From IMG/VR virus record IMGVR_UViG_3300045988_125802: 64,000 nt of DNA. The stretch is one strand, 5' to 3'. The DNA is from a virus. The position numbers were made by a program, and so were the translations under genes. Shown here in pieces: positions 4,178 to 56,448 of this stretch; the stretch's first letter is position 1; each line of letters opens with the position of its first letter. The notes under the pieces were generated by a model. It made no database searches, had not been told where the DNA came from, and saw only the letters and a program-made list of their open reading frames with translations.

Positions 4178-5200
4178 TTATTTTATTTTTGCTTGCAAAG
4201 AAAATAATATATCTTGATGCTTTGGTGAATTGAGATACTTAGCAGCTATATTCAATGTTGGCTCTTCATTTATCTCACATAAAGGAGAATTATCACTTCT
4301 TAGGTATAAATAGTTACCTCTATTTGAAATCAAACCAAGCTCTATACATTTCTTTATAAGGACTTTAGTACCTAGGAGAGGATCTGTAACAACTCTTAAG
4401 AATATCTTACTATCTGCTTGAATCAGAGCATTAACTCTTGTTTGTAAAAATTCAAGTTTAGCTGAAGGGGAAGTAGGTCTCCCATCAATAATTTCCACTA
4501 TTACCCTCAGAGTATCAATATCATCTTCAATCTTACCAAACTCTTTATAGCATCTCATTGTAGTGCTCATATTATCCTTATTTACCTTAGTCTCTTCACC
4601 ATCTGATATAATAACAAATTGGTAAGTAGATTTGGGGCTGTCTTGTAATACCTGTAATGATGGAGCAATATAATCTTTATTTGCTAATAGTATCTTGTAT
4701 CTGATGTAATCCTCTGGGTCAGCAAGGTTAAAATAATTATCTTGCTTAGATAATCTTACTCTCGAGATACCTCCTTCATTGCTATCATCCCAGAAATTAT
4801 CCACCTTTTTATAAACACTTAATGCGTTATATTCAAGACCCATTATTTCTTCGAGAAATGCTTTCTCTTTATCTGTAAGAACATTGACAAACATCCCTGA
4901 AGATAATCTTGGTACTGTAAATACTATTACAGCCCCCTCTGCCATACCTCCAGACAATACATGTTTAGGATTATTACCCCATATACCTGTCAATTTAGGT
5001 ATATGTCTTACAATAATTCTTTCATTTCTCAAACAATTAACTGGAGCATCTCCAGACACTTCTATCTTCTCTTGCTTCTTTCTTGTGGTCTTTGCAGTGA
5101 CTTCTTCTTTTGACACTTCTCGGAGTGGAATCTCTGTATCATCTACATCAAAATTAAGTTCAGTATAATCCACTTTCTCTTCCATTTTCTTCTCTACCAT
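4178..5200 (-). CDS. Hypothetical structural-module protein (340 aa)
   Basis: Intact ORF directly downstream of the MCP with an acidic N-terminus. No motif recognised. Confidence 0.6.
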   Translation of the reverse strand: MVEKKMEEKVDYTELNFDVDDTEIPLREVSKEEVTAKTTRKKQEKIEVSGDAPVNCLRNERIIVRHIPKLTGIWGNNPKHVLSGGMAEGAVIVFTVPRLSSGMFVNVLTDKEKAFLEEIMGLEYNALSVYKKVDNFWDDSNEGGISRVRLSKQDNYFNLADPEDYIRYKILLANKDYIAPSLQVLQDSPKSTYQFVIISDGEETKVNKDNMSTTMRCYKEFGKIEDDIDTLRVIVEIIDGRPTSPSAKLEFLQTRVNALIQADSKIFLRVVTDPLLGTKVLIKKCIELGLISNRGNYLYLRSDNSPLCEINEEPTLNIAAKYLNSPKHQDILFSLQAKIK

Positions 5201-5278
5201 ATCTTATATTATTTTCTTTCCTTTGTTTTCTTTCAATAAGGTAAAGGGGAATAGGAGTTTCTCTACTCCCCTTTATTG

Positions 5279-6739
5279 TTAACCCTGCAGAATTGCAGGA
5301 ATAAGTGACATAGTTCTTGTTGGATCAAGAACACAGATACCAAGAGTAGCCATTCTATGAATTACAGCGGCATCTTCATCAAATGACATATAGGGATTAC
5401 CTATTTGTCCTGTAAACGGATTTCTCAATCCCCACTGATAACCTCTATATTCATTATCTCCTTTAATCTTACATTTAAAGATATTAGGTTGGTCCATAGT
5501 ACCAATATACATAATATCATACCTGTAAGAGAAGGCAGGGCCTCCATTTGGATGGATTACTTTGTTCCTTACTGGATCATCATAAAGAGGATCTACATCA
5601 ATTTTAACCCTAACTCCATTAGGAGCTTGATATTCTACAAATTGGAAGCCAGCACTCAATGAGTTTTGATGCAACTTAGACTGCGTCTTTTGAACAACAC
5701 CAATAGAATTATTATCAAGAACGAATTGAGTCCAACCTGATATTGTCTTTAGTACCTCTTTGTGGAATTGAATAGCACCTCTCTCACCAGTTTTGATTAA
5801 GAAGTACCTATCTCCATAATCCAATTTAGAAGCAGAAAGCTCATACAAAGCATCTTCAAGAAGTTTCAAACTAAATGTATTGTAATACATAGTATTGGCA
5901 ACTTCCATTTGCTCAAACAGGCCAGCACCCGTTTTAATAGAATTACCAGATTTACCAAAGTTCATATACTCTCCATTGGAATTTCTGTTGCTTCTACCAA
6001 ATGCCAATGCGTTATTCTTGTATTCAGAGAACTGTTGTTCTACTTCCCATTCTACATTGTGCATCCACTTTGTGGCAACTGTCTTAACTGCTCTACCTCC
6101 CTCTTCTTTAAGGATAGGAATACCTATAGCCAATTTTTTATTCAGCATAGAACCTGGAACCTTATGCTGTATCCTTACTACAGACCATTCATTCCTCATG
6201 GAAATGGGGCTTGTAAATCTGACATCACCTACTTTTCTTGATAACTCTTTTTCTACGAAAGCAGCTTCAACTGAGAATCTCTCTCCTGCAAGTATCCTTT
6301 CAGCAGGAACACCTGTTGTATTGCCTCCTGCAAGTTCTACTTTATACACTGCATTGGTACCTTCCATTCTTGGCTCCCCAAGAATCCTAAACTGATAGAC
6401 TTCATTTAGATTACCAACGATATACTCACCATCAGCAAACCAGTCTTCAGGAAAGACTAAATAAAAAGGAGCAGTACCCACTCCAATCATACCACTATCA
6501 GCCTCAACAACAGTACCATTTTCATCCCTTGCCTCTATAAGAGGAATATTCCTTCTTGAAGAACCAATAACTTCCCAATAGTATTCACTATCATCCTCAA
6601 ATTCTTTTATTGGAAATTGATTAAGGAATGTGTCAAGTGTTTTTCCCCTATAATAGGCCAATAATTGTACCATTAGGTTTGTAGCTTTTTGTGGACTTAA
6701 CTGAAAGATAGCACCAAGATGGTTCTCTTTTGTTAACAT
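5279..6739 (-). CDS. Major capsid protein candidate (486 aa, HK97-fold class expected)
   Basis: Size, position after an acidic coiled-coil scaffold-like gene, and overall resemblance to crAss-like MCPs as I remember them. No catalytic motifs. Needs HHpred. Confidence 0.7.
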   Translation of the reverse strand: MLTKENHLGAIFQLSPQKATNLMVQLLAYYRGKTLDTFLNQFPIKEFEDDSEYYWEVIGSSRRNIPLIEARDENGTVVEADSGMIGVGTAPFYLVFPEDWFADGEYIVGNLNEVYQFRILGEPRMEGTNAVYKVELAGGNTTGVPAERILAGERFSVEAAFVEKELSRKVGDVRFTSPISMRNEWSVVRIQHKVPGSMLNKKLAIGIPILKEEGGRAVKTVATKWMHNVEWEVEQQFSEYKNNALAFGRSNRNSNGEYMNFGKSGNSIKTGAGLFEQMEVANTMYYNTFSLKLLEDALYELSASKLDYGDRYFLIKTGERGAIQFHKEVLKTISGWTQFVLDNNSIGVVQKTQSKLHQNSLSAGFQFVEYQAPNGVRVKIDVDPLYDDPVRNKVIHPNGGPAFSYRYDIMYIGTMDQPNIFKCKIKGDNEYRGYQWGLRNPFTGQIGNPYMSFDEDAAVIHRMATLGICVLDPTRTMSLIPAILQG

Positions 6740-48067: not shown

Positions 48068-49012
48068 ATGTATAAGAAGAAAACAGGTTCCACTTTTATG
48101 GCTTTTAGTAAAGGTACAGAAAGCAAAGAGGGTAATGAAATTGTAAGATATACAGGTGTTGCTCCTGTGTTTGTATTGGCTGTGAACCCTAGCAAAGAAG
48201 AATTGGAGAAATTATATAATACACAACTTGAGAATGCTCCTGAATACCTCGGAGAGATTGAAGTAGGTGAAGATAAACATAAAGTGAAAAATGTCAGGCT
48301 TGATTTTATTGTCAAAACCGATGCTGAAAAGTGTAATGGTATTGAGTTTGTTACTAAAGTAGCTTTCTTCATTAGAAATGAATATAGGTATAATAAAGAT
48401 CGAACCAAAGTACAGGTAATTGACAAGTATGGTAGAACTGCTTGGGTTACTATTGAACAGGCTAAAGCACATGAGATCCCTATGTATAAAAATGGTCCAG
48501 CTAATCTTGATAAAGACTATAGACCTGCTTATCATGGTGAGGAAGAGCTTACTGGATTTATAAAGGCATATCTCAACATTCCTAATGTAATGAAGTATGT
48601 CAATAATACTTGGGTTATGGTAGACAAACCTGAGGATTGTGAAGCAAGACTTGAGAGCATTGCTGAGTACTTCAAGGGTAATTTCAAGGAGCTGAGAGAT
48701 GTTATTGCATTGCAGCCTAATAACAAGGTTAAAGTATTGTTTGGTGTAAGAACCACTGATGATAACAAGCAGTATCAGGCTGTTTATAATCAGATGTTCT
48801 TGAAGAACAATATCACTGACTACAGTAAGTTGGATGCAGACTTGCAGGAAAGAAAGGCTGCTGGTGCATATCCTACTACTGAGTTTACTGTGGGTGACTT
48901 GAAGGAGTATGATGTAGAATCTACTGACCTTAGTAACTCTGGTGCAGCAGGTGATATGCCTTTCCCTGCTGGTGATACTGCTGGTGGTACACCTTGGGAT
49001 TTTGGTAAGTAA
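48068..49012 (+). CDS. Hypothetical protein (314 aa); ssDNA-binding protein candidate
   Basis: Lies between the ATPase and the primase. It has a flexible G/A/D-rich C-terminal tail (..NSGAAGDMPFPAGDTAGGTPWDFGK). The SSB call is positional and compositional only. Confidence 0.5.
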   Translation: MYKKKTGSTFMAFSKGTESKEGNEIVRYTGVAPVFVLAVNPSKEELEKLYNTQLENAPEYLGEIEVGEDKHKVKNVRLDFIVKTDAEKCNGIEFVTKVAFFIRNEYRYNKDRTKVQVIDKYGRTAWVTIEQAKAHEIPMYKNGPANLDKDYRPAYHGEEELTGFIKAYLNIPNVMKYVNNTWVMVDKPEDCEARLESIAEYFKGNFKELRDVIALQPNNKVKVLFGVRTTDDNKQYQAVYNQMFLKNNITDYSKLDADLQERKAAGAYPTTEFTVGDLKEYDVESTDLSNSGAAGDMPFPAGDTAGGTPWDFGK

Positions 49013-50118: not shown

Positions 50119-50826
50119 ATGGAAGCAAGAAAAATTACAGTCGTACAGACTAAGAATCAGAAAAAGAGTGTTATCATGTCAGCAGCCACGACCCTTGCTG
50201 AGTTGAAAAGTGACCTGAGAGCCAATGGTATTGACTATAATGGTATGACCTTCTTTGAGGGTACATCAAAGGTTGAATTGAAGAATGATGCTTCAGTTCT
50301 GCCACATGATGTTCCTTACAAGGGCACTATCACAAATGAGTTGGTTTTCATGCTTACTAATACCAACAAGAAAATCAGAAGTGGTGCTGTTGCAATGAGT
50401 AGAGCTGAGGCATACAATGCTATCAAATCTATGGGTTTGCAGGATGCTTGTGTAAAGAAGTTTGGCAAAAACTTCACTATGTGTAAGACTGCTGACCTTA
50501 TTGCATTGGTACAGAGTAATGGTGCTTCAAAGCCTGCTCCTGCTGCTCCTAAAGCTGAAGCTAAGGCTGAGACTAAGAAGGAGGGAAAGGTAGAAGCACC
50601 TGTAAGTAATGGTGGTGAGTGTGTTGATACTGTAGCAAGAGCTGCTATCAGCAAGTTGGTGGAAATTCTTGAGGACAATGGCACAATTGAAGATTATGAG
50701 AAAGAGAAAGTGCTTGATATTCTTGGGGGTGCAGTAGAAGTTGCACCATCTGAGGAATATAAGCCTAAGTCAGCTTCTCCTTACTCTGATGATGAGATTG
50801 ATGATATGTTTAATTTTGTAAACTAA
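50119..50826 (+). CDS. Hypothetical protein (235 aa) with possible N-terminal beta-grasp (ubiquitin-like) region and HeH/SAP-like motif
   Basis: Residues 5-95 alternate like ubiquitin (KITVVQT / KSVIMSA / TLAELKSDLRANGI / MTFFEG / LVFMLTNTNKKIRSGA). KTADLIALVQSNG is HeH-like. There is an A/K/E/P linker, and internal SNGG and ILGG motifs. Confidence 0.55.
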   Translation: MEARKITVVQTKNQKKSVIMSAATTLAELKSDLRANGIDYNGMTFFEGTSKVELKNDASVLPHDVPYKGTITNELVFMLTNTNKKIRSGAVAMSRAEAYNAIKSMGLQDACVKKFGKNFTMCKTADLIALVQSNGASKPAPAAPKAEAKAETKKEGKVEAPVSNGGECVDTVARAAISKLVEILEDNGTIEDYEKEKVLDILGGAVEVAPSEEYKPKSASPYSDDEIDDMFNFVN

Positions 50827-50831
50827 ATTAT

Positions 50832-51371
50832 ATGGTTGAAATATGGAGACCTATACAAGGATATGAAGGGTTATATGAAGTTTCTAATTTAGGGAATGTG
50901 AAATCTCTAAGTAGGAATGCTTTACTAAGCAAGCACAAGAATAACAGAGGATATTTATCTGTAAGCTTATACAAGGAAAATGTAGGAAAACATTATCTTG
51001 TACATAGACTTGTAGCACAGGCTTTTATTAATAATCCTTTCAACTTACCTTATGTAAATCATAAAGATGAGAACCCTATTAATAATGTTGTAAGCAATCT
51101 TGAGTGGTGTAGTCAAAGTTACAATGTAAATTATGGGAGTGCTCAAGAAAGACTCTCTTCAAAGAAAATTAGTAAAAAGAGAGGACTAAAAATAGCACAA
51201 TATAGGGCAAGTATTCTTGTAAAGACTTATAACTCAGCTTCTCAAATACAAAGAGAGTTAGGATATAATACTGCTCCAATACTTAATTGTTGTAGAGGAG
51301 GATATTATAGAGGAGGTAAGTGGGTCTCAGTATCTCAATCTTATGGCTTTGTTTGGAAATTTGCAGAATAA
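50832..51371 (+). CDS. Free-standing HNH homing endonuclease with NUMOD4 motif (179 aa)
   Basis: IWRPIQGYEGLYEVSNLGNVKS (NUMOD4). HRLVAQAFI...VNHKDENPINNVVSNLEW (HNH_3). It is a paralogue of 63055..63594 and 59997..60599. Confidence 0.8.
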   Translation: MVEIWRPIQGYEGLYEVSNLGNVKSLSRNALLSKHKNNRGYLSVSLYKENVGKHYLVHRLVAQAFINNPFNLPYVNHKDENPINNVVSNLEWCSQSYNVNYGSAQERLSSKKISKKRGLKIAQYRASILVKTYNSASQIQRELGYNTAPILNCCRGGYYRGGKWVSVSQSYGFVWKFAE

Positions 51372-51376
51372 TATAG

Positions 51377-51420
51377 TAGGTGAGGAGATTAGAAATGCCC
51401 CCTTACCTACTTTTTTTTTT
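51377..51420 (+). terminator. Rho-independent terminator
   Basis: 10-bp stem GTAGGTGAGG/CCTTACCTAC (one G.T pair) followed by T10 at 51411-51420. Confidence 0.8.
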
Positions 51421-51428
51421 ACAGTAAT

Positions 51429-52733
51429 ATGAGTGGAGAAACAATTAAATTAATTGAGGAGAAGATAGAAGAACTATATAACTCCTTGATGGACAGACCA
51501 CTCCGAGTATTAAGCATATTCAATGACTTTTTTGGAGAGGATAAAGTTGATATGCAAGGATATTGGAGTTTGGACAAGTTCAAATCTTGGATGAATATAG
51601 AGCCTTTATCTACTTATATTCCTGATGGTAATATTGTAAGCATGAACAGGAATGACTGGAGCATGTATAAAACATGGGCTATTACTGATTTACCTGGAGA
51701 CCAGGTAGAAAAGGTTGTAAATGTGCTTACAAGTACTACAGTAAAGGAAAGAATTGGTAATGCTAAGTTCAATGGCATATTCATTCTTGTACATTTTCCT
51801 CATATAAGAGTAACTAATGAGCATGACAGATTTGTGGATATTAACCATCTGTGGGCTAAGGTAAAAGTAATGTATAATGGCACATTGAATGGTGGATTTA
51901 CACTTAACAGGTCAGAATATACTATGCTTCACATTAGCAGTGGATATATGCACAGTCATATCGATAGTATTCCTACAAGTGACTTTACCAGTTTTCAGAA
52001 TCCTTGCACAGGCAATGGTCCCATCAATGGTACTATTAGTGCCCTCAATAGGGATTATGATGAGGATATATGGAATATGTTTTGTCTTGAGCTAAGTAAG
52101 TATGTAACTGTAGAATCCATTGCTGGCAGACCTTATAAATATCTGGAAAAGTTAGGTACTAATAACATGGAGATGGGTGTAGATAGGTTTGTTACATATC
52201 TATCACCAGGCTACTACTATGGGGGTGCTCTTAGTTCTGATAAGTTGAAGGAGTTTGTAAGAGGCTTTATCAATTCAAAGAAACTTAAATTCAATTATGT
52301 AAATGGCTCTTATTCTATTGGTATGTCACTTATTGAGTTTATTGTACTTATTAGCAATGAATTTATTAAGTGGTATAATGACCAGTTTAATAAAGAGGAA
52401 CTAACTGCCAAGTTTGCAGAATTGAAGAGGAAAGGTACCTTGAAAGAATGTATCATAGATAATGGGAAGATTTACTATGATAAAGGTAGGAACAATGTAA
52501 ATACCTATGCCCAATATATAGGCAAGAAGGTTTGCATGTTCAAGGGAAGAGAGGTTACTGTTGATATTACAGATATTGCTGAGGTAAGGAATGAGAATAA
52601 GAGTATAATTCTTAATATTCGTACCGCACTATACATATTAGCAACAATACTTAAAGTGTTAAATTATAGATATGGAAGAAGTAAAGCAACCCACGAAAGT
52701 AATCAGCTTGGTACAGAAGTCAGGTACTTATAA
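51429..52733 (+). CDS. Unknown protein (434 aa), first gene of the JAB/E1-like cassette; E2-like role is only a hypothesis
   Basis: Intact ORF starting 9 nt after the terminator. The segment ILVHFPHIRVTNEHDRF...YMHSHIDSIPTSDFTSFQNPCTGNG has a His...Cys arrangement that could be UBC-like, but I cannot verify this. Confidence 0.55.
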   Translation: MSGETIKLIEEKIEELYNSLMDRPLRVLSIFNDFFGEDKVDMQGYWSLDKFKSWMNIEPLSTYIPDGNIVSMNRNDWSMYKTWAITDLPGDQVEKVVNVLTSTTVKERIGNAKFNGIFILVHFPHIRVTNEHDRFVDINHLWAKVKVMYNGTLNGGFTLNRSEYTMLHISSGYMHSHIDSIPTSDFTSFQNPCTGNGPINGTISALNRDYDEDIWNMFCLELSKYVTVESIAGRPYKYLEKLGTNNMEMGVDRFVTYLSPGYYYGGALSSDKLKEFVRGFINSKKLKFNYVNGSYSIGMSLIEFIVLISNEFIKWYNDQFNKEELTAKFAELKRKGTLKECIIDNGKIYYDKGRNNVNTYAQYIGKKVCMFKGREVTVDITDIAEVRNENKSIILNIRTALYILATILKVLNYRYGRSKATHESNQLGTEVRYL

Positions 52734-53889
52734 TTATAAGCTGATTATCCCAGCAGAAGTGGAGAGAAAGATAAGATTTGCCTGCCAAAAGGTGTGGAGT
52801 ACTGAATGGTCAGGTACACTATTCTTTACACATGAAGGTTCATTTGAAAATAATGACCTTGTAATAAGATGTGTGGATATTTACATTATGGATATTGGTA
52901 CTCAAGCCTATACAGAGTTTGATATGAATCCTGATGTGATAGCCTATATGTGTGAGAATCCTGAGCTACTTGATTGCCAAATAGGTCTTATACATTCCCA
53001 TAACAATATGAGTACTTTCTTTAGTGGAACAGATACTGCTACTCTAAAGGAGGAAGGTAGGGATAGAAATAACTTTGTATCTCTCATTGTGAATAATGCA
53101 GGTACTTATACTGCTGCAATTACAAGGAGAGTTAAGTCAAAGCAGGTCAAAGAGTCTGTGTCTTATGAGTTCTTTGGTGATGGTGAAAAGCATGATACTA
53201 AGGAATATGTAAGTAGTGCAGATGAAATTGAATGGTTCTATCTTAAAATAGAGAATGAAAATGAAACATTTTCATTCCCAGACATGGCAGCAAGACTTGA
53301 GGAAATCGAGCAAGCCAAAGCAGAAAGGGCAGAGAAAGCTAAGAAAGCTCGAACACCTGTATATCAAGGTGGCTATAAACCTGTTATTGCTAATTCCTAT
53401 GGTACAAAGGCAGGTCCAGCAAATCTTGTCAAGAAGGAAGCTGATAAGCCTAAGGTAGCTCAGCCAACTCTCTTTGATAATGCAGATGACTTGCCATTTG
53501 AAGAGGGGTATGACATACCTTATGGTCATGTATCATTTGATAAGGTTACTTTGAAATCTCTTGTACTTCAATTGATTACAGGTAGTATTATCATTTCTAA
53601 TGATAGTAAGATTGACATTACTAAATGGGCTAAGTCAATGCCTACACTGTATGAAAAGAGGTTTGGTAAAGGCAAAGCTGGTATGGATAATTTCAAGATA
53701 TGGGCAGAGACCTATGCAGAGTATCTGACATGGTATATAACAGATGAGAAATTAGAAGAGCTTGGCTTTGATGAAACAGAAATTTGTGCTATTTGTGCCC
53801 ATGATATGATAGAGGAGCTTACAAAACTCCCTGAAAATGATTATATCAAAGGGTATATTGATGCACTTCAAAAGTATTTAGTATTATGA
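52672..53889 (+). CDS. JAB/MPN (JAMM) metalloprotease-domain protein (405 aa)
   Basis: Complete JAMM signature: upstream Glu (STEWSGTLFF), then HSHNNMSTFFSGTD, which is HxHx7Sx2D. A C-terminal extension of about 220 aa has unknown function. Confidence 0.75.
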   Translation: MEEVKQPTKVISLVQKSGTYNYKLIIPAEVERKIRFACQKVWSTEWSGTLFFTHEGSFENNDLVIRCVDIYIMDIGTQAYTEFDMNPDVIAYMCENPELLDCQIGLIHSHNNMSTFFSGTDTATLKEEGRDRNNFVSLIVNNAGTYTAAITRRVKSKQVKESVSYEFFGDGEKHDTKEYVSSADEIEWFYLKIENENETFSFPDMAARLEEIEQAKAERAEKAKKARTPVYQGGYKPVIANSYGTKAGPANLVKKEADKPKVAQPTLFDNADDLPFEEGYDIPYGHVSFDKVTLKSLVLQLITGSIIISNDSKIDITKWAKSMPTLYEKRFGKGKAGMDNFKIWAETYAEYLTWYITDEKLEELGFDETEICAICAHDMIEELTKLPENDYIKGYIDALQKYLVL

Positions 53890-55004
53890 GTGAAGAAGCA
53901 ATTGAGGCATATAACTCTCTTATGGAGAGCCTCAATGAAGGTGATGTTCGTGAATATAATGAGGTGGGACATGCTGACCTTAGTACCTTCAACAGTGTCC
54001 TTAATAGTATTAGAATGGGTCTCATTACCTCTCTTTATGTTGTTGGTTTGGATGGTGTACCTAATACCTATAAAATTGTATATAGTAGCACTGAAGGTGT
54101 AACAGGTAGAATCTTTGTCAATGAACACTTCAAAAGTTTAATTGAAGAGGCTTGGGCTATAAGGATAGGTAACTCTGTAGAAGATGATGGTGACAGCATT
54201 AGCTTTGAACTTTCAGAGGAAGAACAGGCTATTCTTGACCAAGCTGTAGAAGATGCACACCAAGAGATACCTACAAACTCTGCAACTTTGCTTGTGGATG
54301 AAGCTACAAGTAGGTTTAGTTCTGCCATTTGGTATGAGAACATTCAGAAGAAGACTGTCATTTTGGCAGGTGTAGGTGGCATTGGTAGTTATGTAGGCTT
54401 CTTATTGGCAAGAATGAAGCCAGCTTCCATGTTTATCTATGATGATGACATAGTGGAAACTGTCAATATGTCAGGTCAGTTATATGGTCAATCTGATTTA
54501 GGTAGACCTAAAGTATCTGCACTGGCTGAGATGATTAGAAACTATGCTGGCTATAGCAGTGTCTTTGCAATAAGGGAAAGATTCACTGATGAATCTGAGG
54601 CATCAGACATTATGATTTGTGGCTTTGATAACATGGCAGCAAGAAGACTCTTCTTTAATAAATGGGTAAATCATGTTCAATCCAAACCAGAGGAGGAAAG
54701 GAAGAATTGCCTGTTCATTGATGGTAGGTTGGCAGCAGAGGAGTTTCAGGTATTGTGTATCAAGGGAGATGATGAGTACAACATCAATAGGTACAATAAT
54801 GAGTTCCTATTCTCTGATGCAGAAGCTGATGAAACTATCTGCTCCTATAAACAAACTACCTTCTGTGCAAATATGATTGCATCTTATATGGTTAATTTGT
54901 TTGTAAACTTCTGTGCTAATCAATGTGAGCCTCTCATTGATAGAGACCTGCCATTCCTTACCACATATAATGCAGAAACAATGTATCTTAAAACTGAAGT
55001 ATAA
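53886..55004 (+). CDS. E1-like (ThiF/MoeB/UBA-family) adenylyltransferase-domain protein (372 aa)
   Basis: Rossmann loop KKTVILAGVGGIGSYVGFLLA followed by IYDDDIVETVNMSGQLY and RPKV, the typical ThiF layout. Candidate Cys residues lie in ETICSYKQTTFCANMIA. The N-terminal region of about 150 aa is unknown. ATGA overlap with the JAB gene. Confidence 0.65.
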   Translation: MSEEAIEAYNSLMESLNEGDVREYNEVGHADLSTFNSVLNSIRMGLITSLYVVGLDGVPNTYKIVYSSTEGVTGRIFVNEHFKSLIEEAWAIRIGNSVEDDGDSISFELSEEEQAILDQAVEDAHQEIPTNSATLLVDEATSRFSSAIWYENIQKKTVILAGVGGIGSYVGFLLARMKPASMFIYDDDIVETVNMSGQLYGQSDLGRPKVSALAEMIRNYAGYSSVFAIRERFTDESEASDIMICGFDNMAARRLFFNKWVNHVQSKPEEERKNCLFIDGRLAAEEFQVLCIKGDDEYNINRYNNEFLFSDAEADETICSYKQTTFCANMIASYMVNLFVNFCANQCEPLIDRDLPFLTTYNAETMYLKTEV

Positions 55005-55774
55005 TGGAATTTAACCCAAGATTTGCATATAATGTAATGGGTGTTTTCAATAGCAGTGAGTCTGGTAATCCAGACCAGCTTGAAATGAATCTGTCTCTTG
55101 ATAGTAACAATGTATTTAGAAGAAGCCTTGTCATTGAAGTAAACAATGATGAGGTAGAGATACCTGTGATTGCAAGAGAACACTTTGAGAAGCTGGTTTC
55201 AGACAATATGGCTTATCCCGCAATTATGGGAATCAAGAGGATAATATTGCCATTATATGACAATGCACCAAGCCAAGAAAGAAGAACCTTTGATAGTATC
55301 ATAGCTCAATTATTTACTAATGTAGGATATGGTAAAGGATTGCAGAAGATAACTACCAATAAGGGTGAAGTGTATTATGGTGGTAAAGGTATCATCTTTG
55401 ATGAGAGCTACACTCCATTACTATTATGTACATTAACTGCAAGAAGTGTACATACTGAGGATAATGGTAATGCTATGGTCTATTACAGACCTGTATGCCA
55501 TGTCAGTCCCAAAGTATTCTTAGAGTCTGATAAGTTGATTAATAAAGGCATCATCAAGAAATTGATTCCCTATTATACAAGTAGGGATATAAATTTCCCA
55601 AGAAACAATTACAGCTTCAGCAGTAATCCAGAGGACAGGAAAGTAAAGGTCATAGTAGATAATTTCAATAAGTTCTTTGTAGAACCTATTAAACCTACTC
55701 CATCTGCCTGCTCTAATGATGCACTGAATGAATGCCTTATTGACAATATTGATGACATAATGATGTTGATATGA
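55004..55774 (+). CDS. Unknown protein (256 aa), last gene of the JAB/E1-like cassette
   Basis: TAATG overlap with the E1-like gene and ATGA overlap with the UDG gene. No motif recognised. Confidence 0.55.
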   Translation: MEFNPRFAYNVMGVFNSSESGNPDQLEMNLSLDSNNVFRRSLVIEVNNDEVEIPVIAREHFEKLVSDNMAYPAIMGIKRIILPLYDNAPSQERRTFDSIIAQLFTNVGYGKGLQKITTNKGEVYYGGKGIIFDESYTPLLLCTLTARSVHTEDNGNAMVYYRPVCHVSPKVFLESDKLINKGIIKKLIPYYTSRDINFPRNNYSFSSNPEDRKVKVIVDNFNKFFVEPIKPTPSACSNDALNECLIDNIDDIMMLI

Positions 55775-56448
55775 CATTAGATGAATACTTTGGAGATTGG
55801 ATGAAGGTAATTGATAGGACAGAGCTTAATAATGTAATGGCTAAGGTTGGGCAAGAATACAGGAGGAAACCATTGTGTCCTGCCCAATCTGATGTATTCA
55901 GAGCATTTGAGCTTTGCCCTCTCAATGACTTGAAAGTAGTTATGTTAGGTCAAGACCCCTATCCACAAAAGGAAGTGGCAACTGGAGTATTATTCGGGAA
56001 TAGAAAGGAAGTTGATGAGGATAACTTATCTCCTTCATTAAATGTTGTTAAAGAGGCAGCAATTAATTTTGAAGTTCCACATTATTGTATTACCTTTGAC
56101 AACTCTCTTGAGAGTTGGTCTAAACAAGGAATACTAATGATAAATTCTGCACTCACTGTAGAAATGAATAGGATAGGTTCCCATGTGATGTTGTGGAGAC
56201 CCTTCATAGCTAAATTGCTAAAGAACTTGTCTGAATATAATACAGCTATAGTATATGTATTGTTTGGCAGGCAAGCCCAAACCTTCAAACCTTATATTAA
56301 TGATAGGTTCAATCATATCATAGAGATTGAACATCCTGCATACTTTGCAAGGAGTGGTACTAAGATGCCACATCAGCTATTTGTTGATATAAGTAATAAG
56401 GTAAAAGAGATTTATGGTGTACCTATAAAATGGTACGAAGAGTATTAA
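55771..56448 (+). CDS. ung: Uracil-DNA glycosylase, family 1-like (225 aa)
   Basis: VFRAFELCPLNDLKVVMLGQDPYP (GQDPY water-activating loop), ATGVLFGN, and a C-terminal IEHPAYFA in place of HPSPLS. Confidence 0.75.
   Translation: MTLDEYFGDWMKVIDRTELNNVMAKVGQEYRRKPLCPAQSDVFRAFELCPLNDLKVVMLGQDPYPQKEVATGVLFGNRKEVDEDNLSPSLNVVKEAAINFEVPHYCITFDNSLESWSKQGILMINSALTVEMNRIGSHVMLWRPFIAKLLKNLSEYNTAIVYVLFGRQAQTFKPYINDRFNHIIEIEHPAYFARSGTKMPHQLFVDISNKVKEIYGVPIKWYEEY

Follow-up and report, generated by a model that had tools for sequence, protein, structure and literature searches.

A candidate phage-encoded ubiquitin-like activation and conjugation system beside the primase gene of crAss-like phages

Can a bacterial virus carry a ubiquitin-like (Ubl) protein pathway of its own? 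To our knowledge, all experimentally characterized prokaryotic Ubl conjugation systems (Cap2/Cap3 of the cyclic-oligonucleotide-based anti-phage signalling system (CBASS), Bil and Bub) are weapons of the host against phages. The question is raised by a locus in a 64,000-nucleotide stretch of virus DNA (IMG/VR record IMGVR_UViG_3300045988_125802; hereafter the window), where the genes of a JAB metalloprotease (protein B) and an E1-like enzyme (protein C) lie next to each other in the replication module, preceded by the gene of protein A and followed by that of protein D. From the letters of the DNA alone, the initial annotation had proposed these four genes as a phage-borne conjugation/deconjugation cassette that starts just after a transcription terminator. 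All four open reading frames (ORFs) are present where it had placed them, and the junctions that it described are correct (ATGA between B and C, TAATG between C and D, ATGA between D and the uracil-DNA glycosylase (UDG) gene). Its starting point at 51429, however, is wrong: the unit begins at 50119, with the gene of a Ubl precursor; the terminator-like hairpin is a conserved internal feature; and the HNH endonuclease gene next to the hairpin is an insertion. We read positions 50119–55774 as a phage-borne five-gene system for Ubl activation and conjugation (Ubl precursor, A, JAB protein, E1-like protein and D), a reading in which our confidence is slightly better than even. That the Ubl, the JAB protein and the E1-like protein form a trio acting on a glycine of the Ubl is much likelier than either protein conjugation or the role assigned to A, and we consider it quite probable. 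The core of the proposal, a conjugation/deconjugation module, is strongly supported: a Ubl fold, an invariant glycine, intact catalytic residues of JAB and E1, strict co-conservation and natural gene splits at the glycine stand on observation; cleavage, adenylation, thioester transfer, conjugation itself, its targets and the roles of A and D we infer.

The 235-residue protein encoded upstream of A, which had been named only as a possible test substrate, is a ubiquitin-fold protein with an invariant glycine of the C-terminal type. In an AlphaFold2 model of this precursor built from 89 sequences, residues 1–84 reach a predicted local distance difference test score (pLDDT) of about 90–97 and follow the order β-β-α-β-(β-β)-β; residues 85–90 (KKIRSG) fall below a pLDDT of 50 and are disordered. 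The top 50 Foldseek matches of the domain in the Protein Data Bank (PDB) are all of ubiquitin fold (probability about 1, template-modelling (TM) score up to 0.72 on the target) and include the Mpe1 UBL, SUMO1, ubiquitin, ISG15, UBX and DIX domains, so that, as modelled, residues 1–84 adopt the β-grasp (ubiquitin) fold. Forty diverse homologues can be aligned over their first ~90 residues only: Gly89 (motif K-x-K-S-G) is the sole invariant position of this alignment, and the sequences are unalignable beyond it. The glycine is conserved in 154 of 154 aligned homologues. A flexible tail that ends in a conserved glycine, made in precursor form, marks a Ubl of the conjugatable type, with cleavage after the glycine predicted.

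Natural forms of the protein also stop close to this glycine. Stand-alone Ubls ending in the glycine plus one to three residues were found in seven loci and about 25 protein clusters, both in crAss001-like lineages and in four distant environmental lineages. A Ubl-domain profile search of 5.8 billion proteins recovered many 91-residue forms, which end in KKI(K/R)SG followed by KF, IC or IL, and in the four environmental lineages the Ubls are 75–83 residues long and end in KVKSG plus one to three residues, with no endonuclease gene nearby. This is the format of a precursor whose glycine is exposed by a peptidase: BilC pre-processes BilA, exposing the BilA glycine (10.1101/2023.09.26.559546), and BubCD cuts the BubAB fusion right after its conserved glycine (PMC11601596).

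After the Ubl domain and its flexible tail to G89, the window protein continues with a domain of three helices, a linker that is disordered, a helical hairpin and, at the C-terminus, an acidic/aromatic motif. The three helices (residues 95–105, 108–115 and 124–135) are modelled with a pLDDT of about 90, and their motif GKNFTxCxTxxL is kept in crAss001-like and some other lineages; searches of Pfam and NCBIfam gave no family match, and the sequence pattern is that of a probably DNA-binding, HeH/SAP-like domain. The acidic/aromatic peptide DDEIDDMFNFVN, modelled in part as a short helix (residues 224–230), is kept in crAss001-like phages. Motifs of this type (DDEIDDMFNF; EIDDFF; EDDF) change place with the lineage: they end the Ubl tail or, in environmental lineages, form a tiny ORF of their own (L142 3818–3967; L138 3786–3926) or lie at the N-terminus of A (L136, L098), which points to a portable interaction peptide as part of the system. 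In the annotation of DAC17 gp88 (L006 2579–3319), the annotated start at 2636 cuts off the first two Ubl strands, and the ORF read from 2579 restores them.

The locus has been a repeated target of homing elements. HNH/NUMOD genes have invaded the locus in the window (50832–51371) and in the loci L167 (6291–6804), L025 (3464–3976) and L060 (3802–3945). The window gene (Pfam NUMOD4, E=1.5e-15; PHROG HNH endonuclease, E=6e-49) sits between the stop codon of the Ubl tail and the hairpin. Bajarodcaudo virus 1, crAss001, DAC17, Dulem virus 41 and FpV4 lack it at this position, and it is therefore an insertion. In close relatives the endonuclease stands exactly after the Ubl glycine codon, so that the Ubl, extended by two residues, and the tail are encoded by two separate ORFs. 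L167 carries a degenerate NUMOD homing-endonuclease gene directly after the glycine codon, and its tail ORF has its own ATG. A group I intron was considered as the cause of the 91-residue stand-alone Ubls and was rejected, an Rfam scan of L167 at E<=1 finding no intron and the tail ORF having its own start codon; a very divergent intron is a slight possibility. A scan of this kind serves as a positive control in L098, where it picks up a group I intron (4971–5207; RF00028, 63.8 bits, E=1.6e-15) in the JAB gene, between the HxH and SxxD codons; a LAGLIDADG-type ORF (5195–5977) runs there on the minus strand, opposite to the intron-bearing JAB gene. The JAB gene is split in about seven loci. Introns that sit at the codons of an active site are a typical mark of important phage genes.

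The JAB assignment of B is sound. The complete JAMM motif that had been read from its sequence is present, with the glutamate in STEWSG (E45) and the other residues in HSHNNMSTFFSGTD (H108, H110, S118 and D121), so that the pattern H108-S-H110-x7-S118-x2-D121 conforms to E...HxHx7Sx2D. All five catalytic residues are invariant in 140–142 diverse homologues. The match to Pfam Prok-JAB (E=9.4e-5, 22.7 bits) is just under the 25-bit gathering score, the JAB domain spans about residues 20–160, and the C-terminal half is helical and variable. The nearest proteins of solved structure are JAMM1 and Rpn11-like proteins, matched weakly by sequence, and B has no PADLOC BilC or Cap3 match. The alternative that B is a RadC-like or otherwise unrelated MPN protein was not borne out, the domain keeping all of its catalytic residues.

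Protein C likewise has the ThiF/E1-type Rossmann loop that had been reported for it (LAGVGGIGS...DDDIVETVNMSGQ) and matches Pfam ThiF well above the cut-off (E=1.3e-17, 64.2 bits versus 28.1). A variable N-terminal extension (residues 1–140) precedes a compact adenylation domain (141–372) with a conserved core of about 225 residues, in which G162, G164, S168, D186, D188, N194, K209, D248, R253, D279, R281, Y303 and C319 are invariant in 145 of 145 sequences. With GxGxxG, the Asp, the Lys and D-x-x-R in place, C reads as a member of the E1/ThiF/MoeB superfamily; Cys319 probably lies on the crossover loop, judging from its spacing after the DN motif. Within the superfamily, the profile of the C family matches the sequences of MccB, UBA5, PaaA, Uba1, ThiF, TcdA and MoeB in the PDB about equally (1e-13 to 2e-11), these matches covering only the nucleotide-binding half. 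Every match to the curated NCBIfam models of ThiF, MoeB, UbaA and MoeZ is far below cut-off; the best, ThiF PRK08644, scores 66 bits against a cut-off of 159, the others fall short by more, and only the N-terminal half aligns. Among the defence models of PADLOC, the Cap2 E1-E2 models match best (to 7e-12), better than any curated ThiF or MoeB equivalog model does, and BilD reaches 4.7e-5 over about 100 residues. Because the matches to PDB sequences are about equal, the ThiF and MoeB scores are below threshold and the Cap2 models match best, we take C, as far as sequence comparison goes, to represent a distinct E1-like clade rather than a cofactor-biosynthesis enzyme; the latter alternative, raised at the outset, was not borne out.

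Several features of C vary or depart from the usual pattern. E1/ThiF enzymes carry N-x-x-R-Q; the C family has N-M-S-G-Q, in which the usual Arg is missing (window 54441–54479). Upstream of its Rossmann loop stands a motif R-F-S-x-A-x-W (window 54312–54332), the near-invariant Arg143 of which may supply the Arg finger instead. The N-terminal ~140 residues (53886–54305) are lineage-specific and highly variable, and the extension is absent in FpV4, Dulem virus 41 and environmental homologues. The start of the gene differs among deposited annotations, the ORF of bajarodcaudo virus 1 being about 90 codons shorter.

The compact, single-domain build of C, together with the name ThiF borne by its best NCBIfam matches, invites a reading in which the locus is a sulfur-carrier or cofactor system: the JAB protein would trim the Ubl, C would make a thiocarboxylate as in ThiS/ThiF, MoaD/MoeB, CysO/Mec+ and QbsE/QbsD, and A would transfer the sulfur, via Cys193, to a small molecule or a nucleic acid base in the course of phage DNA or nucleotide metabolism. 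In CysO/Mec+, QbsE/QbsD and SAMP, a JAMM peptidase trims a short C-terminal extension or removes conjugates, and E1-only conjugation or sulfur transfer is feasible; a Ubl with a one-to-three-residue extension and a JAB protein is the CysO/Mec+ and QbsE/QbsD format, no UBC-type E2 is present, and the module lies among genes of nucleotide and DNA metabolism. We nevertheless think this reading, the main rival, unlikely. The ThiF, MoeB and MoeZ matches of C are far below cut-off and confined to the generic nucleotide-binding half; no rhodanese, cysteine desulfurase, PP-loop thiolase or cofactor gene is found among the scanned cassette proteins; the Ubl often carries a DNA-binding-type tail with an interaction peptide, an unusual fusion for a sulfur carrier; and A has one invariant Cys and no Fe-S-type motif.

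If the Ubl is instead conjugated, the slot of the second enzyme in the gene order is taken by A. The A family is large (1,529 representatives of 50%-identity clusters match at E<=0.001), with a conserved core at about residues 100–240 in which Y173, H175, S176, H177, C193, G195, E229, S230, G233 and P235 are invariant and N130 is near-invariant; the single invariant Cys is not part of an Fe-S-type motif. In a confident AlphaFold2 model (pLDDT 92.1, predicted TM score 0.84), the local succession of a helix, three long strands, the H-S-H loop, Cys193 and two helices is reminiscent of an E2. A occupies the E2 slot with a plausible Cys/His (or Ser) active site, and may act as the carrier or ligase of the Ubl. 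The ubiquitin-conjugating (UBC)-like fold that had been sought in A was, however, not found, either by Foldseek on the model or by hhalign. Searches of Pfam (including Prok-E2 and UQ_con), PDB sequences, PADLOC and NCBIfam gave no match to A, its longer homologues carry no extra Pfam domain, and in BFVD Foldseek matched it only to uncharacterised crAss-like orthologues. A as a UBC-type E2 was therefore rejected and is kept as a positional analogy only: the likeness is limited to gene position and the His-Ser-His...Cys motif.

A further candidate was examined in jumbo phages, where an 892-residue protein (L004 3256–5934, Xanthomonas phage PhiXhv-15) adjoins a distant ThiF-like gene. Both of its ends are Cys-rich (CxxC clusters), and its segment IHPH...GSLCLGS resembles the HPN...Cys signature of UBC proteins. 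It was rejected as a fusion of A and B, since hidden Markov model (HMM) and hhalign comparisons with A, B, the Ubl precursor and D were negative and it has no Pfam match.

Several of these observations weigh against a conjugation system. No recognizable E2 is present: the best Foldseek hit of the A model in the PDB has E 1.1 and a TM score below 0.15, so that A has no neighbour there, although Cap2, Bil and Bub structures should be among the entries searched, and hhalign gives the A core a probability of 0.15% against UBC, a weak test, made with hand-entered UBC sequences. C is a small single-domain protein, in the size class of MoeB, ThiF and UBA5, and sulfur-carrier systems that do not conjugate typically have an enzyme of this size too. 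The Ubl has Ser-Gly, not Gly-Gly, at its end, and its Foldseek E-values are modest (1.5e-3 to 1.5e-2), which is common for a domain of 85 residues. Lastly, a terminator-like hairpin parts the Ubl gene from the enzyme genes, which thus do not form a simple single operon with it.

Protein D evolves fast. A plus-strand ORF follows the E1 gene in 160 loci, and direct homologues of D occur in 100 loci; among 54 other downstream ORFs, the D profile gives 23 weak matches where about 1 would be expected by chance. By hhalign, D aligns with cluster c1 at 60% (E=8e-5, 124 co-linear columns), c1 with c0, the largest cluster, at 96%, and c0 with c4 at 96%, against 0.1–0.2% for controls; a motif GKG[FYI]I is shared. 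No known family was matched in Pfam, PHROG, PADLOC or NCBIfam. D is probably a fast-evolving fifth member of the module, as these profile comparisons indicate, and possibly a specificity factor or a target.

How widely, and how strictly, are these genes kept together? The window comes from a crAss-like phage; among deposited genomes bajarodcaudo virus 1 is closest to it (about 80% nucleotide identity), and crAss001 (Steigviridae) has a nucleotide match to it in the E1 core only. By tblastn, the E1-like protein occurs in 83 phage records, which comprise crAss001-like Steigviridae, Dulem virus 41, the non-crAss group of Flavobacterium psychrophilum phage FpV4 and, distantly, some jumbo phages. 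A accompanies it in 74 of the 83 (the two share exactly these 74 among 50,697 records), which are all of the Bacteroides, Flavobacterium and faecal uncultured phages and include crAss001, DAC15/17 and FpV4-like phages. In about 160 IMG/VR loci (160 were gathered by the E1 protein and searched with iterative HMMs for every protein of the block), the order primase, Ubl precursor, A, B, C is near-invariant, with the Ubl gene immediately upstream of A in about 150; the same order holds in crAss001, DAC17, Dulem virus 41 and FpV4, and the position of the UDG gene varies. Three outcomes had been named beforehand as speaking against the proposal, namely that C falls into a cofactor clade, that the JAB domain is RadC-like and that the genes are not kept together in related phages. 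None of them was observed, Ubl, A, JAB and E1 being kept together across the IMG/VR loci.

Cellular homologues were sought with the E1 profile in 185,579 species genomes, and the scan returned only binned phage contigs, a prophage-like region of a Puia metagenome-assembled genome (MAG) and two Myxococcota ThiF genes that stand isolated among unrelated neighbours; this essentially restricts the module to phages, the hosts of which, where known, are Bacteroidota. The Puia sp. contig (L168; DASYBV010000020.1, 373 kb, Chitinophagaceae) carries a complete primase-Ubl-A-JAB-E1 block, which could be an integrated prophage of an otherwise lytic-looking phage group or an assembly or binning artefact. 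In crAss001, the string runs primase (gp80), gp79, gp78, gp77, gp76, gp75 and UDG (gp74); gp79, gp78 and gp75 are annotated as hypothetical, gp77 as 'metalloprotease domain' and gp76 as 'thiamine biosynthesis protein ThiF'. Domain-level annotations are therefore already in the databases; a literature search found no paper that reads them as a system or ties Crassvirales or crAss001 gp75–79 to ubiquitin-like systems.

The hairpin between the Ubl gene and A, from which the cassette had been thought to start, is real. An 11-bp stem (51375–51385/51401–51411) is followed by U10 (dG -15.5 kcal/mol; z=-3.0 versus shuffles for 51375–51420); a simple terminator scanner missed it because its loop is 15 nucleotides long. 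Of 154 loci, 132 have a hairpin with a U-tract at this junction, its sequence differing between lineages, compared with 10 of 145 primase/Ubl and 1 of 164 JAB/E1 control junctions. Because it is kept at this junction across loci, the 'terminator' is a conserved internal feature and not the start of an independent cassette. It may be an attenuator that keeps the Ubl, which would be consumed stoichiometrically, more abundant than the enzymes, or it could simply end the upstream transcription unit.

A hairpin that parts the Ubl gene from A–D also fits a reading without any Ubl chemistry, in which the ubiquitin-fold domain would serve a replisome accessory protein for structure or interaction only, the JAB and E1-like proteins would work on something else (for example peptide or nucleotide adenylation, as MccB, PaaA and TcdA do), and their adjacency would reflect a shared role in replication. 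β-Grasp domains widely serve as non-conjugated adaptors (PMC1949818), and MccB, PaaA and TcdA are indeed among the top solved-structure sequence matches of C. Such a reading leaves several observations without a place, and we hold it to be very unlikely: a glycine on a disordered tail is the only invariant residue of the Ubl family, with no conservation after it; natural stand-alone forms stop one to three residues past that glycine; Ubl, JAB and E1 occur together in nearly every sampled locus; and no microcin-like peptide gene or tRNA-modification context was seen.

If the genes do form a Ubl system, to which of the known ones does it belong? The initial annotation had drawn a parallel with bilB-bilC-bilD, and this holds for the gene order but not for the proteins. 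As in Bil, the order is Ubl, second protein, JAB, E1, the Ubl is a precursor whose glycine would have to be exposed by the JAB protein, and there is no E3. Unlike Bil, which is host-encoded anti-phage defence, the present module is encoded by phages, within their replication module, and includes D as a fifth gene. A, which stands in the BilB slot, has no detectable UBC/E2 fold, and neither BilB nor BilC was matched in PADLOC. BilD has the three-part architecture of inactive adenylation, active adenylation and Cys domains (IAD-AAD-CYS; PMC11601596), whereas C is a single compact adenylation domain of ~225 residues with its Cys in the core, and the BilD HMM match to it is weak and partial. A Ubl and a JAB protein are thus present, and the E2 fold and the IAD-AAD-CYS E1 are not.

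Type I Bub ('6E') resembles the module in its five functional units and their order (Ubl, partner, JAB, E1, fifth protein), in a Ubl made as a fusion to a downstream protein, from which that of Bub is released right after a conserved glycine, and in a compact, single-domain E1, C having a weak sequence match to BubCD. By contrast, the Bub Ubl is fused to an E2 and the present one to a helical, acidic tail; JAB and E1 form one fused gene in Bub and separate overlapping genes here; and the Bub E1 lacks a catalytic Cys and uses oxyesters, whereas C has the invariant Cys319. Pfam searches of D and its neighbours found no DUF6527/BubE match. With no UBC E2, no IAD-AAD-CYS E1, no Ubl-E2 or JAB-E1 fusion and no DUF6527 protein, the module falls outside both Bil and Bub.

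Other relatives are more remote. Type II CBASS shares the pairing with a JAB protein and the E1 domain that is the best defence match of C (7e-12), Cap2 structures being matched as well; however, no E2 is fused to C, a dedicated Ubl replaces the C-terminus of the CD-NTase, and neither a CD-NTase nor an effector family was found by Pfam and PHROG scans, which covered eight proteins of the window block. The SAMP/UbaA/HvJAMM1, CysO-MoeZ-Mec+ and QbsE-QbsC-QbsD systems combine a small Ubl, a compact MoeB-like E1 and a JAMM peptidase with no UBC E2, but C fails the UbaA, MoeB and MoeZ thresholds, there is no rhodanese or sulfur-metabolism neighbour, the present Ubl ends in Ser-Gly, and there are two extra proteins, A, with its invariant Cys/His site, and D. 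Neighbourhoods of JAB, ThiS and E1 genes in sulfur assimilation have been described (PMC1779556), as has the tail Ubl TAPI of phages lambda and T1, which has a conserved C-terminal Gly and a fused C-terminal domain and is predicted to be released by the JAB-NlpC/P60 protein TAPK (PMC1779556). TAPI/TAPK is the sole pairing of a phage-encoded Ubl with a JAB protein that we found described; it has no E1, lies in a tail-assembly cluster and has its JAB fused to NlpC/P60. The module described here differs in having an E1, in its place among the replication genes and in being found in unrelated phages. It is best read as a phage-encoded Ubl system that resembles Bil and Bub, belongs to neither and has a non-canonical second enzyme.

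The likeness to host systems suggests a further possibility, that the module is mainly an anti-defence device directed at host Bil or type II CBASS (Cap2/Cap3), with the JAB protein stripping Ubl tags set by the host on phage proteins and the phage Ubl and E1 serving as decoys or competitors, and with no tagging programme of the phage's own tied to replication. Host Bil tags phage tail proteins, and JAB peptidases can reverse such tagging (10.1101/2023.09.04.556158); a Bil-like system has been reported in Bacteroides (PMC12135933). Among defence HMMs, C is closest to the Cap2-type E1 models, and D evolves fast, like proteins in an arms race. A simple deconjugase would nonetheless need neither its own Ubl with an activatable glycine nor a catalytically intact E1, and B has no PADLOC BilC or Cap3 match. 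The fixed place and order beside the primase gene across very distant lineages is unlike typical accessory anti-defence genes, and the homing elements and introns sit at conserved sites in the Ubl and JAB genes, which is the pattern of phage housekeeping genes. We regard an anti-defence device as improbable, while noting that it concerns biological purpose and is compatible with conjugation.

For the five-gene conjugation system that we favour, the following course would account for the observations. The Ubl would be made as a precursor, here with a DNA-binding-type tail and elsewhere with one to three extra residues, and B would cut after Gly89 and so free the C-terminus of the Ubl. C would then adenylate the glycine with ATP, probably forming a thioester on Cys319, and the Ubl would be passed to target lysines, most likely via A, whose Cys193 lies beside the His-Ser-His loop. 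B could also reverse the modification, and D would act as an accessory. Tagging would most likely be directed at proteins of the phage or the host, while the genome is replicated or the host taken over. The replication phase is suggested because the module lies in a middle-expressed replication block, always beside the primase gene; the timing is that of the orthologous block of crAss001, which is among the genes of the middle, replication-associated transcription class (PMC8375218). The full version of this course, a self-contained viral Ubl pathway in which the new Cys-dependent family A carries out the E2 step and host or phage proteins are tagged during replication, we put forward tentatively, as a possibility that falls clearly short of an even chance.

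The features of the locus are collected in Table 1. The reading frames of A and B overlap by 62 nucleotides (52672–52733), which corrects the earlier description, and that of D overlaps the C and UDG frames at stop/start codons. Across lineages, the A/B overlap ranges from 11 to 179 nucleotides, two loci overlapping by 1 nucleotide; in nearly all overlapping loci its length is 2 modulo 3, which places B in the +1 frame of A. In the crAss001-like lineages compared, A looks conserved at its C-terminus (...[RK]-[YF]-[LI]) and B at its N-terminus. The overlap could serve translational coupling or a programmed shift. Further upstream, a 314-residue protein is encoded at 48068–49012, directly upstream of the primase gene; it is co-conserved in 105 loci, ends in an acidic/aromatic tail (...TPWDFGK) and has no NCBIfam match. 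It might be a phage single-stranded-DNA-binding protein.

Table 1. Positions of the candidate Ubl system and adjoining features in the window
Feature	Coordinates	Strand	Remarks
Ubl precursor ('up235'), 235 residues	50119..50826	+	orthologue of crAss001 gp79
Gly89 codon	50383..50385	+	predicted processing/activation site, K-K-I-R-S-G | A
Three-helix domain of the Ubl tail	50401..50523	+	HeH/SAP-like, from sequence pattern only
Acidic/aromatic C-terminal peptide of the Ubl precursor, DDEIDDMFNFVN	50788..50823	+	likely protein-interaction motif
HNH/NUMOD4 homing endonuclease gene	50832..51371	+	insertion, outside the system
Hairpin + U10 between the Ubl gene and A	51375..51420	+	intrinsic-terminator/attenuator-like
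Protein A, 434 residues	51429..52733	+	orthologue of crAss001 gp78; orphan fold
Protein B, 405 residues, JAB/JAMM	52672..53889	+	orthologue of crAss001 gp77
Protein C, 372 residues, E1/ThiF-type	53886..55004	+	orthologue of crAss001 gp76
Protein D, 256 residues	55004..55774	+	orthologue of crAss001 gp75; fast-evolving accessory
UDG gene	55771..56448		directly after D

The database label 'thiamine biosynthesis protein ThiF' has hidden this system and is corrected here. The module belongs to the conserved core of many Bacteroidota phages, a large group that ranges from the gut phages crAss001 and DAC15/17 to the FpV4 group of a fish pathogen. Because orthologues exist in culturable phages, and the cleavage site, the catalytic residues and the tryptic remnant are explicit, the hypothesis is directly testable. 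If it is true, the virus itself probably tags proteins much as cells use ubiquitin, and would thereby wield a chemistry seen so far as host defence, in a pathway that would remodel the replisome or disarm the host. A may be a new type of Ubl-transfer enzyme, or the system may show how such a pathway works without an E2; in the former case, a bacterial virus would for the first time be seen to have a complete Ubl-conjugation system, one with a new class of Ubl-transfer enzyme.

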